DNA of 63,470 bases, counting the filler, from Stramenopiles sp. TOSAG23-2 (lineage: Eukaryota), in the NCBI GenBank assembly GCA_900128395.1. It is 14 parts of 14 records of this genome, joined end to end, with 100 filler letters (N's around TTAATTAATTAA, not from the genome) between each part and the next. Parts side by side here need not be neighbours in the genome. Positions count along the whole stretch, not along the records: positions 5,425 to 10,743 come from LT650691.1; 13 more parts are not named here. One strand, written 5' to 3'. Both the position numbers and the translations under genes were made by a program. A model generated the notes under the pieces. The model did not search any database. It was not told the origin of the DNA and saw only the letters and a program-made list of their open reading frames with translations. Positions 5,325 through 20,027 of this stretch are shown here, piece after piece; positions within the stretch are counted from its first letter, which is position 1, and each line of letters opens with the position of its first letter.

Positions 5325-5424
5325 NNNNNNNNNNNNNNNNNNNNNNNNNNNNNNNNNNNNNNNNNNNNTTAATTAATTAANNNNNNNNNNNNNNNNNNNN
5401 NNNNNNNNNNNNNNNNNNNNNNNN
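5325..5424. other. Artificial contig linker (N44-TTAATTAATTAA-N44); identical linkers at 10744-10843, 16157-16256, 21569-21668, 26972-27071, 32372-32471, 37770-37869, 43164-43263, 48555-48654, 53945-54044, 59331-59430, 60711-60810, 62091-62190
   Basis: 13 identical 100-nt spacers whose core gives stops in all six frames; flanking contigs decrease monotonically in length. Confidence 0.99.
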
Positions 5425-5426
5425 CA

Positions 5427-6763
5427 CCAAAATATGTTCCGGTAAAGGTAGAACCAAAATCTTTCTTTGCAAACGAACGTACGTTTATACAATGGTTGTC
5501 AGCATCTTTATTAATGCTTACGTTGGGTGGCGCGCTTGTTAATTTAGGCGGGGAGTTATCTTCTCCAGGTTCTGTACTTGGTTTCACCGTTTTAGGCTCT
5601 GGATTAATATTTGCTGTTTATTCCTTGGTACTTTTTCATCTACGTGCTCAAAAATTAAGAGAACGAGCTGATGGACCTTGTAAGTAAATTGTATTTTCCT
5701 AAACCTAAAAAAAAAAGAGACATCCTCTAACACCTAACATATCATTCATTCGCTACGCTACACAGATGACGATAGATATGGACCAACCATTTTAGTAATC
5801 GTTTTGCTCATAGCTATGATAACAAATGTAATTTTGCTTGCCCAAAAGAATAGTTTGGCTGCAGTTCCAGTTGAAGTTAAAGATAGTGGAGGTTTATCTT
5901 GTCAATCCTTATTTAGTGGTAGTGGTGGAAGGCAAAATGCAACGCCATTTTTCTTGTCATTTAACAATGCTCCATGTGGACTGGTCTTACTAAAAGATGA
6001 AACTAGTGGCGAAGAGAATATATTATTTACAGCAGGTTCTTCTATTTACAAGATGAAAGTTAAAAACGACAAAGGTGGGAAAAGCCAAGTAGTAGAGACG
6101 CCGAAATCAATATTTACACTTCCAACAAATATTGTGAATGCAAAGTTACGCGGTTTGGCTGTTGTACCTGCAAATAATACCAATGGCATCAATAATCAAC
6201 ATTATAATATGGCATATATTCTGAATGAAAAACCAAGATTAAGTATTCTGCAGATTAATTTGACGGCTACTCCTGCAAATTTATTAAGCAATAATGATTT
6301 CGAATTGGGGTATAAAACTGGGAAATTACCTCTTGCAGCAACAGAATATTCTGGTGGAATAGGTTTATTACCATCATTTGAAGAGACAATAATTTTATCT
6401 ACATTTGATGGCATCGTCATTGTTCAAAATAGTAACAATCAATTACGAATTATTGCTCGCATTGAGGATGATATCTATGATGATAAAACTAAAAGTTCCC
6501 ATGTGGGTGCAATATTCAGTTCGAAAACGACGCTGTATCTTCTAATGGATGAAGCCAAAGAATTGATAACCATAGACGTGATGGCTGGAAAGGTAAAATA
6601 TCGGTTTACACTCCCAGGGAATCAAAATGAAATTTGGTCTGGGTTACATGTTGATGAAGTAAATCACTTTGTTTACATGTCGTGTACATCACCGACACCA
6701 GGCATATGGAAATTTCGATTTAATGGGAAAGATGGTAGTGGCTTTACAAAAAGTTGCGATTGA
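5427..6763 (+). CDS. Vacuolar transporter chaperone (VTC, polyphosphate synthesis complex) subunit, DUF202 TM region plus long C-terminal domain; 5'-partial; intron 5680-5765
   Basis: PVKVEPKSFFANERTFIQW is the VTC/DUF202 signature; removing GTAAGT...CACAG (5680-5765) restores the conserved GPYDDRYGP loop and joins the 5496 and 5804 ORFs in frame. Confidence 0.88.
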
Positions 6764-7528
6764 ATATACTATATGTAATATGGGGCATTGCCAGGTGCGC
6801 ACCAATGCCCTCAAGAACAATGGAGCACACCAGACCAGAAAAAATGTACTGGTTGCATAACTTAAATATATACGAGAGTATATAATAATATATATTTTTT
6901 TTAAATATTAAGAGAGTATATATTACAACACATGTGTAACTTATTTACTACGTAAAAGTTATAATTATAATATGAGAGCGCTGAGCTCTGGGAGCTAAGA
7001 GTAAGGCCTAGAGCTATCCACTGCTGTGTCAGTCTATAATTTAGTCTGCGTCGTCAGACGACTCTTATAATTATTATACACTTTATTTATCATTGTTTTA
7101 CTGGTGGTAGACGACTAGAGCTAGCTGGTACAGTATGCCTGGTATGAGCTCGTATTGTTGATACATTTATATTGTACTCATTACAATAGATGCAATACAA
7201 CGATGTCACGATGCCCACCTTAACCTGTCCACCTTCCACCTTCCGCGGCATAGCAAAATAATAGTAAATACCAGGTATTCCTCTCTGGTATTACACATCT
7301 TCTTCTTCAAAATAAGGATACTAGGTATTATAAAGTAAAAAGGTATATATTTATTATGAATTATTACTTTCAAATTATCCGGAATATATATATAATTGGA
7401 TATTGGATTTTAGCTTAGTGACATATATGAAATATATTTCTATAACATATACATATATATTGAAATACAAAGAAGCAATTAAATAGTAAATACAAGTTCG
7501 TGAGCCCTTCCCTCATCATTCTTTACAG

Positions 7529-7825
7529 ATGAGTCATTCATCATCGCGTATTGGTTTAAGAAGAAAAAAAATCAACAAAAGTCCGAAGAAAACAAAATAT
7601 GATAGAAATAATAGACCAGTATCCGAAAGCGTACTTTTAATGCGTCATGATTTATCTCAACTAACGGAAGCGGTAGAAAATCAGCAATATAATATGAAAG
7701 CTATTATTGATCGCTTAAATTCTACTGGGAATTATGGTAATATTCCAACACGACCACCTCAAGCTGCTTTAATTGCTGCTGATAAGTATAATAGTTACAA
7801 TAGATTTGGAAATGATTATGATACA

Positions 7826-7857
<32 letters not shown>

Positions 7858-8713
7858 TATCAACAACCATGGTAATAGTAGCAACGATAACGATTCCACA
7901 ATTTTGTTGCAAAATATGCAAGAGCAAATAATGAATATAGCCGAAACACAGAAGAAATTAAGCGCAAAAGTTCATGCATATGAAAAGATACAAGTAGCTG
8001 GGGCTGACGTAAATGATGACTGGGAACTCATTAAGCGAGAGCAAAGGATTTTGACTGATCATGTTGGGCGGTTATCTCAAGCTGTTATGGAATTGAAGAC
8101 ATCAAAACGCTCCGATGCATTAGCAGCAGCAGCACAGATCAGAAATCAAGCAGAGGAGACTATGGATGGTATAAGAAAAGAAGTACATGTAATGCGAGAG
8201 GAAAATGCTAATTCTGTCAATAATATGGAAACAAAGTTGTTAGCGATGGAAAACAATTTTCAAGCAACATTAGACAAATTTCGTAACGAGTATGATGGCA
8301 AAATCAATAATGTACGAAGGGAAGCAGAATCATCATTTGAATCGATAAAAAGGGAATTGGAAAATACCTTGGTATCAGTGAAACATGATTTGGTATTTAA
8401 TAACAATTATGAAAATAAGAATAACAATAGCAAAATTGGAAGGATGGGGAATAATAGAATTGATGTCTTTTCGAAGACACCGGAACGTTTAAAAATGCAA
8501 ACCCCAAGGCACAAAAAAAATTCTACTTCACCCACATCAATGCAACATGAACAAGGTAGTGGTAGCGAAACCGGTTTTGGAAATAGCTTTACTGGATCTT
8601 CACCATTGAGGGCCACATCAATTAGAACCGTTGCATTAGACAATGAATTAAAGCTTTTGGAGGAAAAAATTAAATTTGCCCAAGAGAGTATCTTAAAGGG
8701 ATATAATATATAA
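7529..8713 (+). CDS. Hypothetical coiled-coil protein with poly-Asn tract
   Basis: 394-aa ORF with coiled-coil composition; ATG directly preceded by acceptor-like CTTTACAG, so an upstream exon is possible. Confidence 0.75.
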
Positions 8714-9187
8714 AACCGTGTCACAAATACATTAATTTTATGAAAGAGGAGTACCGAGAAAAAGTACAAAAGCGAGTATGCATATGCATATATATATGAT
8801 ATTGTACAAAAAGGTTTTAATAATTGATATCATTCACATACATCAGTGTAACATATATAATGTTAATCTGGTGGTAAATTGAAATTTCAGTATTCAGTAT
8901 ATAGTAATAAGTACAAATTACACATATTTTACAAGTTACAAGTACTATAAAAACTTGAACACTTACGAGTTCTCGTGGATCTTGGACACCATGTTCACCA
9001 TTCCAGCATTCCGCATTCTAATTTCTAATTCCTCTATAATATATCTAATGTAATATTCCAAGTAATTTTTGGATTTGCATTTTTATAAATTATAAATCTA
9101 GGTCTAAGTACGGAGTAGTTGTATACTGGAAATATTTACCTATATATAATAGGGGATTTGGGAAATCCCAAATCATCAATCACGTCC

Positions 9188-9234
9188 TCGTCCTCTAGTC
9201 TGCGTCGTCAGACTCTTTCTCGGACTCGTCCTCT
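9188..9234. mobile_element. 29-bp mini-insertion (9197-9225) flanked by 9-bp direct repeat TCGTCCTCT
   Basis: Core AGTCTGCGTCGTCAGACTCTTTCTCG matches 53045-53070 at 25/26 nt; direct repeats at 9188-9196 and 9226-9234. Confidence 0.55.
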
Positions 9235-9368
9235 CCTCTCTCTCTCATCTCGCATCTCACAGATACAGTGTAATATCAGAAGATATTATTATATATATAT
9301 ATATTAAGATAAAAGAAAACGGCGTCATATATTCATATATTTTTTACGAATATTACTTATATATTAAA

Positions 9369-10458
9369 CTATGATAAATGTTCTGCAATAACATTACAAA
9401 CTGCGGTATTCCCACATAGAATTTTTTGTGTTCCACAATTTAAGACATCGTAGATATCTCCGTTTAAATTACAAATTACCCCACCGGCTTCTTGAACTAT
9501 AACACAACCTGCCGCAATATCCCAAATTCCACCTATGTTACTCTCATAATATGCACTGCATTCACCCGAAGCAACATATGCCATTGATACACAACATGAT
9601 CCTACATAGATAAACATATATATATGTATTTAGTATAATTATCGTTCAGAATACATTAATGTTAGAGATTTATCTAATTGATATGGAATTGTTGAAATTG
9701 TAAATTGTCAGATCCATTGCTATCTATGTTGCCATCATCGAGTGAAACATTTTGATATATGTATTAGCGTGCTTATACTTACCCAACATTCGAATCGAAC
9801 GAGCTTGTTTTTTTAAAAGATTGTGTACAGAAGTAATTTGATCTTTTACAATTGTTGGATCCCTCGAATGCCCAAAATTCGTTGCAATCAAAGCAGATGA
9901 TAAATTATCTGCATCATCAACATGGATTCTTACAGCGTTCAAATATGCTCCGCATTTTTCAGCAGCTTGATAAAGTAACCCTGATGAAGGAATGTAGATA
10001 ATACCTAGAACAGACCTTTTATTAACAAGGAGACCGATACTAATTGCAAACATAGGCAGTGCATGTACAAAATTTGTTGTTCCATCAATAGGATCGACGC
10101 AAAAGGTAGGTGAATCTGTCAATTTATTTTCGCTTGAGCTTTCTTCGCCTATGAATTCATAACTTGCAAAGTGCTCCCTTAACCGATCAAATATTAACTT
10201 TTCACAGCCTTTGTCGTATTTTGTGACTAAATCAATACCACCCTTGGATAAAACGCCTAAACTATCATTATTATTATTAACGGATACGTTTGCTTTCGCT
10301 TGCTTTTGCCCTTCAAGTGCAAAATGCCCTGCTTCCAAAGCAGCTAACGTTGCTATTTTAGCTTCTTCACAATATTTACCATTGATAATATTTACATATT
10401 TATAATTTAGATTCTCCAGGTTGTTATTTCCATCATTATCTGTTGTTATGGATGACAT
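9369..10458 (-). CDS. IMPA: Inositol monophosphatase; intron 9602-9782
   Basis: Motifs DLVT, GEE, VDPIDGTTNFVH and WDIAAG; splicing GTAAGT...TGTAG restores RSIRMLGSCC. Confidence 0.95.
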
Positions 10459-11470
10459 TTTTTATATTTCAAACTAAACAAAGCCTTTCTGCTAATCTAT
10501 ATCATGTATATTTTTTTAGACGATAATAACCAAAAGCCTTGTGTGTATTGTTATTATTTTGGTGCTTTGTAATTTGTCTATTAATTTATTATTTTTTCAT
10601 GTTTGCAACTCCAGAGGAACTATTATAATTATATAATATTGCTATATGATGATATATATATAATAAATAAATAATAATAAATAAGCACATCATAATATAA
10701 TAATAAATAATAATAAAATAATAATACTACCTATATATTAAGTNNNNNNNNNNNNNNNNNNNNNNNNNNNNNNNNNNNNNNNNNNNNTTAATTAATTAAN
10801 NNNNNNNNNNNNNNNNNNNNNNNNNNNNNNNNNNNNNNNNNNNAGGAGTGTAGCAAGACGTAGAAGACGAGACACCATTAGTGTGAAGGGACCGAGTATG
10901 GTTTGCCAGTCGTCCAGCAGTCATAATTTGCCAGTTTGCACTTTAAAACTTTGTTGTTTTTGGTACACCTGAACACCAGCACACCAGCCGGGCCAGCACA
11001 CCAGCACACCTGGCTCATCACACCCACTTCACCAATCATAGTCGTGCTATTCCTATGGTACTGTAATTTTTGAGGAGCATTTGAAAAGCACCACACACAG
11101 ACTTTATTGACGACACTTAAATATAGTAAAATTATATACTATAGTATTAATACTATGATACTAGGAAGTTAGCTGAGCTACTCTCTGGCTGACTACTAAA
11201 TATTATAGGAAATCCTGGAAGTATTATAATGGTGCTATAATAATTATTTGGACTTCCAGACTTCCGTATTACCACCTGGTATTAGTATGTTGCTTATTGG
11301 TTTATCAGTTAATTTTTTTCTAAGAAATACTACTATAGCTATAGGTAGTCTGAAAGTAGTATTCACACACACACACCCAAACATATATATACATCAATAA
11401 CCAATTTGGAGATATATTAACATAAATTTAAATTGTACATATAAGTATTTTTCATCACGCATATTTAAAT

Positions 11471-19211: not shown

Positions 19212-20027
19212 TGTTAATTTTCTTTGTTGTATATATATACGTGGTATATATGACGATAATACAGACAATAAATAATCGATATAATAAAAATGGGGTTAAT
19301 TATATTTAAAATGATTATATTTTGCTTGGGTATACTATAAATCTTGAAAAAACGAAACAAAGAAACAAGAAAAATTGAAAAGGAATACAATTAATGTATC
19401 TACTTCTTTTAAGAATCTTATCAAACAAAAGAAATAACAACGAACGAAATATAAAATAAATACTTTGCATGATATCATATTTCTCTACTGTGGGAGAGGA
19501 CGATTATCTTTTATTTTTTTGTATGGAATTTAGAATATTTTGTTGTTGATTCATTTTTTTAATCATCATTTTCACGGTCACATCGGTTAGTACTACCAAA
19601 TAAAATAGGAATACTAGTATTAATATACAAATATATATACTTAATATATTTTTAAAAAAAGTGTACTAAGAATAAAAATACCTGCTATTTGAAGGATGTG
19701 AGTCAGTGCGTTTAATATGTAAAAACAGTGCTATTCAATGCTATTTTTATATTTATACTTGATAGACTAGGAAAGTATGAAATGAGGTTAAAAATCAATT
19801 AATCATTTTTTTTGCGGAAATAACAATATTATTATATTGGCACATCATTGATCGATCATCATTTTGCACTTTAGCACTTTTCAACATTTTTTTAACATTT
19901 TTTTGAATGAATTATTATAAAAAGAGATACTGATGACGTGTGATGACGTATAGATAGTCGTCGTCTAGAAACAGAAAGAAAGAAAAAGATAGCATACAAT
20001 TATTATCAAAACAAAAAAGAGATAAAA

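Follow-up and report, generated by a model that had tools for sequence, protein, structure and literature searches.

Mu elements insert preferentially at the 5′ sides of genes, and Hsia and Schnable are said to have traced, in 1996, the deletion derivatives of maize Mu/MuDR to interrupted gap repair; we know of no Mu deletion derivative anywhere near as short as 20–41 bp. The smallest described MITEs, the Microuli elements of Aedes aegypti, are about 60 bp long, and targeted integration is familiar from Tn7 at attTn7, Ty3 at Pol III start sites and Dictyostelium TRE5-A near tRNA genes. MULEs are marked, by the account given in PMC3310237, by target duplications of 9–11 bp and terminal inverted repeats (TIRs) of 100–500 bp; that account also describes "solo TIRs" from tomato, rice and maize, in which a terminal repeat is present as a lone additional copy; these are judged to be poorly competent for transposition, a "death on birth" (PMC3310237). 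The birth of MITEs by microhomology-mediated miniaturisation is put forward in PMC3814204. Dada DNA transposons are presented as inserting in small-RNA genes, strict target specificity having previously been seen, as that source puts it, only in non-LTR retrotransposons (PMC3706591).

Against this background, three short units were analysed in the window (i.e., the whole stretch of DNA under study, 63,470 nt with its spacers). With a probability that we put at roughly 70%, these units represent one-ended remnants ("solo-TIR scars") of a non-autonomous cut-and-paste DNA transposon family.

Three short units and their surroundings

The stretch consists of 14 contigs (11 of about 5.3 kb and three of about 1.3 kb) chained via spacers of the form N44 + TTAATTAATTAA + N44 (5325–5424 and 12 further places), so that distances measured across a spacer are meaningless. 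The window has a GC content of 31–32% and carries eukaryotic ORFs that are long and intron-poor; a tRNA and Rfam search of it returned zero hits. A 26-mer core, AGTCTGCGTCGTCAGACTCTTTCTCG, is located at 9197–9222 (copy 1) and again, with a single G-to-A change (25/26 identical), at 53045–53070 (copy 2); in 100 dinucleotide-preserving shuffles, the expectation for such a match was none. A third, shorter core variant is located at 7043–7065 (copy 3), giving a density of three copies in 62 kb of window. One contig (5425–10743) carries both copy 1 and copy 3, and copy 2 is on another (48655–53944).

The sequence-only reading had described copies 1 and 2 as a 29-bp palindromic insertion with locus-specific 9-bp flanking repeats on unlinked contigs. 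Its coordinates for the core were confirmed, the two copies are on separate contigs of the chain, and the repeats are present as written, with TCGTCCTCT at 9188–9196 and 9226–9234 for copy 1 and TTTAGATCT at 53036–53044 and 53074–53082 for copy 2, the latter perfect over 9/9 bases. The third copy that it counted is real but of a different form (24 bp, with 7-bp repeats), and the palindrome is there as a 6-bp stem but is weak (folding z of −1.3 and −0.08). In the family-wide frame, in which the element begins with T and finishes with A, the units are placed 1 base off the frame of that description; both frames fit copies 1 and 2 equally, because both duplications happen to precede a T. The features, in the family-wide frame, are as follows.

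7035–7041, + strand: left direct repeat TATAATT of copy 3 (7 bp, degraded duplication)
7042–7065, + strand: putative 24-bp one-ended remnant TAGTCTGCGTCGTCAGACGACTCT, copy 3, a AGACGACTCT variant with a 3-bp GAC slip
7066–7072, + strand: right direct repeat TATAATT of copy 3, pairing with 7035–7041
9187–9195, + strand: left target-site duplication CTCGTCCTC of copy 1; same locus in a metagenome contig (row L022-)
9196–9224, + strand: putative 29-bp one-ended remnant, copy 1, with the complete left end TAGTCTGCGTCGTCAGACTCTTTCTCG, then GA
9225–9233, + strand: right 9-bp target-site duplication of copy 1
53035–53043, + strand: left target-site duplication TTTTAGATC of copy 2
53044–53072, + strand: putative 29-bp one-ended remnant, copy 2, with the G-to-A change in the core, finishing ...CTCGTA
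53073–53081, + strand: right target-site duplication ATTTAGATC of copy 2 (8/9 bases match in this frame)

The break in copy 1 is in the loop of the subterminal hairpin, and the last A of its GA is the terminal base of the element; copies 1 and 2 are both loop-break forms of the TCGAA subfamily. The 3-bp GAC slip of copy 3 recurs in L007, L009, L015, L017, L037, L049, L054, and L067. All three copies are intergenic; copy 3 is approximately 450 nt upstream of the ORF at 7490–8713, copy 2 is approximately 490 nt upstream of an ORF encoding a MutL homologue, and copy 1 is located between two convergent ORFs. The region of copy 1 (9094–9276) is covered gap-free by a contig (record 8) from X4, an independent run of marine metagenome sequencing, and the region of copy 3 (6881–7309) by a contig of another run (X5, record 11); in addition, the metagenome contig L022/L023 corresponds to the window's contig 2 and carries both of its copies. 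In the four metagenome runs compared with 5425–10743, joints that connect 7059/7066 to 9196 derive from other copies of the repeat. Among the contigs listed for these runs, none was without the 38-bp or 31-bp unit of insert plus repeat; as such contigs are short, stop at repeats and lose rare variants, this does not weigh against empty alleles at the window's copies.

Other observations on this contig concern its coverage and one putative intron. Runs X4, X5, and X6, the kind of which is only guessed as DNA, each yielded one contig that omits an 86-nt GT..AG segment (GTAAGT...ACAG; 5680–5765); either the libraries were mixed and contributed a spliced transcript, or a copy or allele lacks the intron. 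Contig depth, summed over four marine metagenome runs, is 10–100 times that of neighbouring DNA at 8807–9162, 10053–10230, and 5603–5780, and many loose contig ends are found at 8900, 8932, 9101, 9146, 10062, and 10095; the high depth suggests that these segments are short repeated or widely conserved pieces. A BLAST search of 8881–9170 against the family loci returned only its own orthologue (L022), and no inverted repeats were found in 8800–9300.

The repeat family and the proposed origin of its one-ended units

An exact scan for the family end (20–23 nt) identified 110 metagenome stretches, 109 of them with a GC content of 25–40%, like the window. A single match, which chance could explain, was found in 596 billion bases of prokaryote genomes (L111, a bacterial contig with 55% GC), and viral contigs yielded zero exact matches. 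The scan demanded an exact 20-nt end, so that diverged copies and copies without that end are invisible in these counts. Neighbouring ORFs with Pfam hits represent ordinary eukaryotic genes (e.g., ribosomal protein L4, G6PD, MTHFR, ATG7, and eIF2A). The units are a repeat family of one lineage and not an artefact, and the prediction of many copies made from the window alone is supported by the 110 metagenome stretches.

A total of 103 distinct copies, all oriented on the core, were compared. T directly precedes AGTCT in 95 of these copies, and a perfect flanking 9-mer recurs within 110 nt in 42/103, as compared to 1/103 in each of four controls in which the 9-mer was taken 12–40 nt further out. 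With one mismatch allowed, 53 copies presented a flanking 9-mer (6–8 in the controls) and 50 did not; permitting 1–6 extra bases beside the left repeat gained only four more copies. Among the 53 repeat-bearing copies (≥8/9 match), the insert has a terminal A in 47, mostly as TA or CTA. The initial T, the final A and the flanking 9-mer together define the ends as TAG...CTA and the duplication as 9 bp; the 9-mer is a true target-site duplication made upon insertion, as anticipated by the proposal of a transposon-derived sequence with a duplication of Mutator length. The family ends are 5′-TAGTCTGCGTCGTCAGACTCTTTC... and ...CTA-3′, and the family end sequence is written TAGTCTGCGTCGTCAGAC.

Reciprocal empty and filled sites, the existence of which had been raised along with the first description of the units, were identified at two related loci, L047 and L051, which have a common Tim17-type neighbour and flanks that are 92% identical over 191 nt. 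L047 carries a 39-nt insert flanked on both sides by GATTAGAAT, a 9-mer present only once at that place in L051; L051, in turn, carries two units at ATTTATGTT, of which L047 has one copy. One further locus is represented in two lineages by a 38-nt form (L035) and a 28-nt form (L067), indicating that units are reshaped in place. L045 and the window at 19250–19900 share a YL1-type neighbour gene, with intergenic DNA too diverged for a filled/empty call. Two other pairs of related loci (L002 and L005; L034 and L106) have a common flank on one side of the transposon end only, or carry three units with variants of one 9-mer; the element may have been the breakpoint of a rearrangement here, or contigs may have been joined at a repeat during assembly.

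The core represents the outermost 20–28 nt of the family's terminal inverted repeat. In L008, L055, and L073, the same end continues as ...CTCTTTC-GAAA or CCGGAA-GAAAGAGTCTGCTGAGGTAGG..., and L073 extends for at least 1.47 kb from that end. The motif thus forms the terminus of a longer element, as was suggested at first; in L073, this element contains zero ORFs of at least 60 aa. The inverted ends of L073 are 92% identical over 115 nt (approximately 150 nt with the outermost 38 nt included), and long TIRs were observed in this one element, the contig of which stops approximately 38 nt before the far tip. The family end carries an 11-bp subterminal hairpin, and its loop variants GAAA, TCGAA, and CCGGAA are each present at several loci as well as in long copies and thus represent inherited subfamilies rather than random junctions. 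L008 also presented, on its minus strand (902–1627), an ORF with an endonuclease/exonuclease/phosphatase domain (E = 5e-9) beside the long-element end and, on the far side of that end, a 190-nt piece of long-element interior that is 97% identical to L073; by this arrangement, L008 appears to be a nested or rearranged copy.

Insert lengths in the 53 copies are 20–31 nt (39 copies), 37–44 nt (8 copies), 52 nt (2 copies), and 56–81 nt (4 copies); both 52-nt inserts represent the two arms of L056, and some of the longest inserts (56–81 nt) may be chance matches. A unit contains one complete end and only the outermost 1–3 nt (A, TA, or CTA) of the other. A single end is found in the three window units and in 100/103 family copies; two arms are found only in L056. 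Junctions recur after the first small stem (...AGACT|A and ...AGACTCT|A), in the hairpin loop (...TTTCG|A, ...TCTCG|TA or GA, ...TTTCCG|ATA, and ...TTTCCGG|TA), and as ...TTTCT|A or, at the hairpin end, ...GAGTCT|A. Break points cluster at two kinds of place, the hairpin loop (after ...TTTC(T)CG) and bases with microhomology (CT, T, or A) to the terminal CTA.

We propose that a full element would insert and produce the 9-bp duplication, and that the transposase would later cut the element out or cut one end only. Repair could then follow either of two routes, i.e., short templated synthesis that halts at the hairpin and is joined by microhomology, or degradation down to a protected, transposase-bound end followed by end joining; imperfect closure by either route would leave one end between intact duplications. 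The combination of intact duplications, a far end cut to A, TA, or CTA and a near end kept up to a structure fits such a sequence of cutting and repair. The "integration/excision scar" offered in the sequence-only reading comes close to this, with the repair step being what we infer; a 29-bp unit itself is most likely immobile. Some results count against remnants of this kind. No transposase was identified among the 120 ORFs of at least 180 aa within 1.5 kb of copies or among the 30 ORFs of the window, and no complete two-ended element with a duplication was found among the 103 copies (loci reach 1.5 kb). Pure excision predicts some plain footprints, but no excess of TA...TA filler was found in 340 kb among 9-mers repeated around 2–8 bases. 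Moreover, half of the comparison (50/103 copies) is without a recognisable duplication, and identical short forms are found at different sites, which could also mean that short forms move.

Palindromic mini-transposons of approximately 50–56 bp, with ends head to head, might instead have lost one arm by hairpin-driven deletion, without a transposase; we regard such a history as unlikely, though it fares best among the alternatives. It would draw on L056, a 52-nt perfect hairpin (−26.5 kcal/mol, z of −10), on medium-length forms that hold part of the return arm (GAAAGAAAGAGTCT), and on the 38-nt and 28-nt forms of one locus, which demonstrate change in place. However, L056 is unique among the 103 copies, the only other two-ended pair within a locus being L055, with a poor duplication. 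The centre of L056, ACAGT, repeats the final four bases of the flanking duplication with a T added, which makes L056 similar to L086 and L054, in each of which two opposed scars have a middle copy of the duplication in common; judged from this centre, the L056 "palindrome" probably represents two opposed scars as well. The return sequence also belongs to the end of the long element (L008, L055, and L073). Finally, what is left of the second arm is nearly always only its outermost 1–3 nt (A in 47/53); otherwise, its innermost part is kept together with the terminal base. A deletion that starts in the middle of a palindrome and spreads outward would not be expected to leave such a pattern, which argues against this decay.

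Less probable again is that the short unit is itself mobile, with a transposase that needs one full end and a terminal TA and moves units of 20–31 bp. This would account for the presence of the same form at unrelated sites with different duplications (TTTCGA four times, TTTCTA and TCTCGTA three times each, CCGATA twice) and for nearly all units starting with T and finishing with A. All of the recurrent forms are broken either in the hairpin loop or at a microhomology, though, and repeated independent repair explains them as well; the junction at the second duplication also varies widely in length and sequence among the 39 short copies. In addition, we know of no DDE cut-and-paste system that works without two recognisable ends. 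The "ultra-short mobile unit" of the sequence-only reading is therefore not what these copies resemble, as they carry only one transposon end and the other junction is variable among them.

A tyrosine-recombinase target or integration scar, also raised at first, is very improbable. The arms AGTCTG and CAGACT do flank a 6-bp spacer, CGTCGT, but these 6-bp arms form a stem no better than that of shuffled sequence, the motif is merely the start of a longer inverted terminal repeat, and zero recombinase or integrase families were found in the 150 neighbouring ORFs. Insertion here produced a 9-bp duplication, as also seen in the empty/filled pair L047/L051, and to our knowledge tyrosine recombinases do not create 9-bp target duplications. 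A library adapter, primer or assembly artefact, which a stereotyped short insert with a 9-bp duplication might bring to mind (9 bp is the gap length of Tn5-type tagmentation), can be set aside, since the core matched prokaryotes once, which chance could explain, and viruses not at all, 109/110 metagenome hits are AT-rich eukaryote-like contigs amid ordinary eukaryotic genes, the window copies are spanned by contigs of other runs and studies, and lineage-specific changes distinguish the copies.

Spacing of insertion sites from an ACCTTAA motif

Insertion sites were rebuilt without the insert and without one copy of the duplication, yielding 49 distinct sites; these come from loci picked via the element itself, on metagenome contigs that are a mixture of several related genomes. 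In 20 of these, a motif NCCTTA(A/T), mostly ACCTTAA, starts 25–28 nt after the first base of the duplication, and in 14 sites this distance is exactly 27 nt, so that duplication and motif are 18 bp apart; the number of sites of this kind expected by chance is below one, given a motif frequency of 1.16 per kb (both strands, non-coding DNA of the loci). The spacers between duplication and motif are unrelated, and no other column is informative. The motif is approximately nine times denser in non-coding DNA (104 in 89 kb) than in coding DNA (17 in 129 kb), and the next ORF downstream of it runs in the direction of the motif in 10 of 11 cases among the 20 spaced sites. Both neighbours were called at 43 sites, and their arrangement is divergent in 16 cases, tandem in 24, and convergent in 3; 3/114 insertion sites are located inside ORFs. 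These positions make ACCTTA(A) a candidate promoter or start-site motif of the lineage; a literature search for ACCTTAA/TTAAGGT as a motif returned only unrelated work. The complete end of the unit is motif-distal in 15/20 sites, a mild bias.

Arrays of 2–3 units that share one 9-mer were identified at L029, L034, L046, L051, L053, L054, L055, and L086, and in five of these (L029, L046, L051, L053, and L055) the motif is 17–18 bp from the last 9-mer, as repeated aimed integration would predict. The window itself holds only five ACCTTAA in 62 kb (ACCTTA(A) positions include 7217, 15659, 28157, and 37675), and 0/3 window copies show the 18-bp spacing. In the long element L073, ACCTTA is found once, at position 171, and is not mirrored at the other end, which gives no support to the motif as a transposase site inside the element. 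As to small-RNA genes as targets, in the manner of Dada, the search for tRNAs and Rfam families at the 20 loci with fixed spacing found none, and this type of targeting was rejected.

We see roughly even odds that insertions of this family are placed, to the exact base, 18 bp upstream of ACCTTAA as a directional motif on the promoter side, either because the transposase reads the motif or because a host factor tethers it. In related genomes, integration would then be aimed at sites 18 bp upstream of ACCTTAA; the motif would survive each visit, so that the same 9-mer could be hit repeatedly, and the resulting stacks of one-ended scars would record past visits. If the spacing reflects tethering, it would provide a candidate core-promoter motif for a protist lineage without genetics.

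Relation to described systems

As a repeat family, these copies are routine annotation, adding a new non-autonomous DNA transposon from an uncultured marine protist; the "undescribed system" initially suspected is rather a new family of a known element class. What is unusual is that one-ended scars of 20–41 bp survive nearly exclusively and that insertions keep a base-exact distance from a motif on the promoter side. In the literature consulted, we found no description of either feature, which is no proof of absence, and titles and abstract openings of related papers reported no fixed spacing for a Mutator-like insertion. If formed as proposed, scars with intact duplications would represent a natural record of the repair of transposase breaks in a compact genome; they also carry a warning for repeat finders, by which units this short will be missed.

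By the architecture of its copies, the family appears Mutator-like, a membership that is structural only. Its 9-bp target duplication fits the 9–11 bp that mark MULEs, and the terminal inverted repeats of L073 (115–150 nt) fit the mark of 100–500 bp; further points of likeness are that copies are non-autonomous, that insertions are found close to the 5′ sides of genes, and that truncated derivatives are joined at microhomologies. Interrupted gap repair in Mu provides a precedent for the proposed formation of the scars. Unlike in MULEs, a MURA-type transposase was not found in the 120 neighbouring and 30 window ORFs; unlike in Mu, the derivatives are one-ended and only 20–41 bp long, and insertions are found at a fixed 18-bp distance from a motif. 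The MULE solo TIR, as far as its published description goes, is part of, or next to, a complete element and lacks its own duplication, whereas here a solo end is found alone between its own 9-bp duplications (PMC3310237).

Like MITEs, the units of the family are short (20–52 nt), non-coding, numerous, near genes, and placed between target duplications, and they probably derive from longer elements by deletions at microhomologies. MITEs have two ends and can be mobilised, whereas the window units have one end plus 1–3 nt and are most likely immobile.

With Tn7, Ty3, TRE5-A, and Dada, the family shares insertion at a set distance from, or position relative to, a recognisable feature, as well as reuse of the site. 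It differs from them in that the feature is a 7-bp motif upstream of protein-coding genes rather than an RNA gene, and in being of the cut-and-paste type with a 9-bp duplication. If the aimed integration is real, the family would combine a targeting logic like that of Ty3 and Tn7 with a eukaryotic DNA transposon that makes 9-bp duplications.
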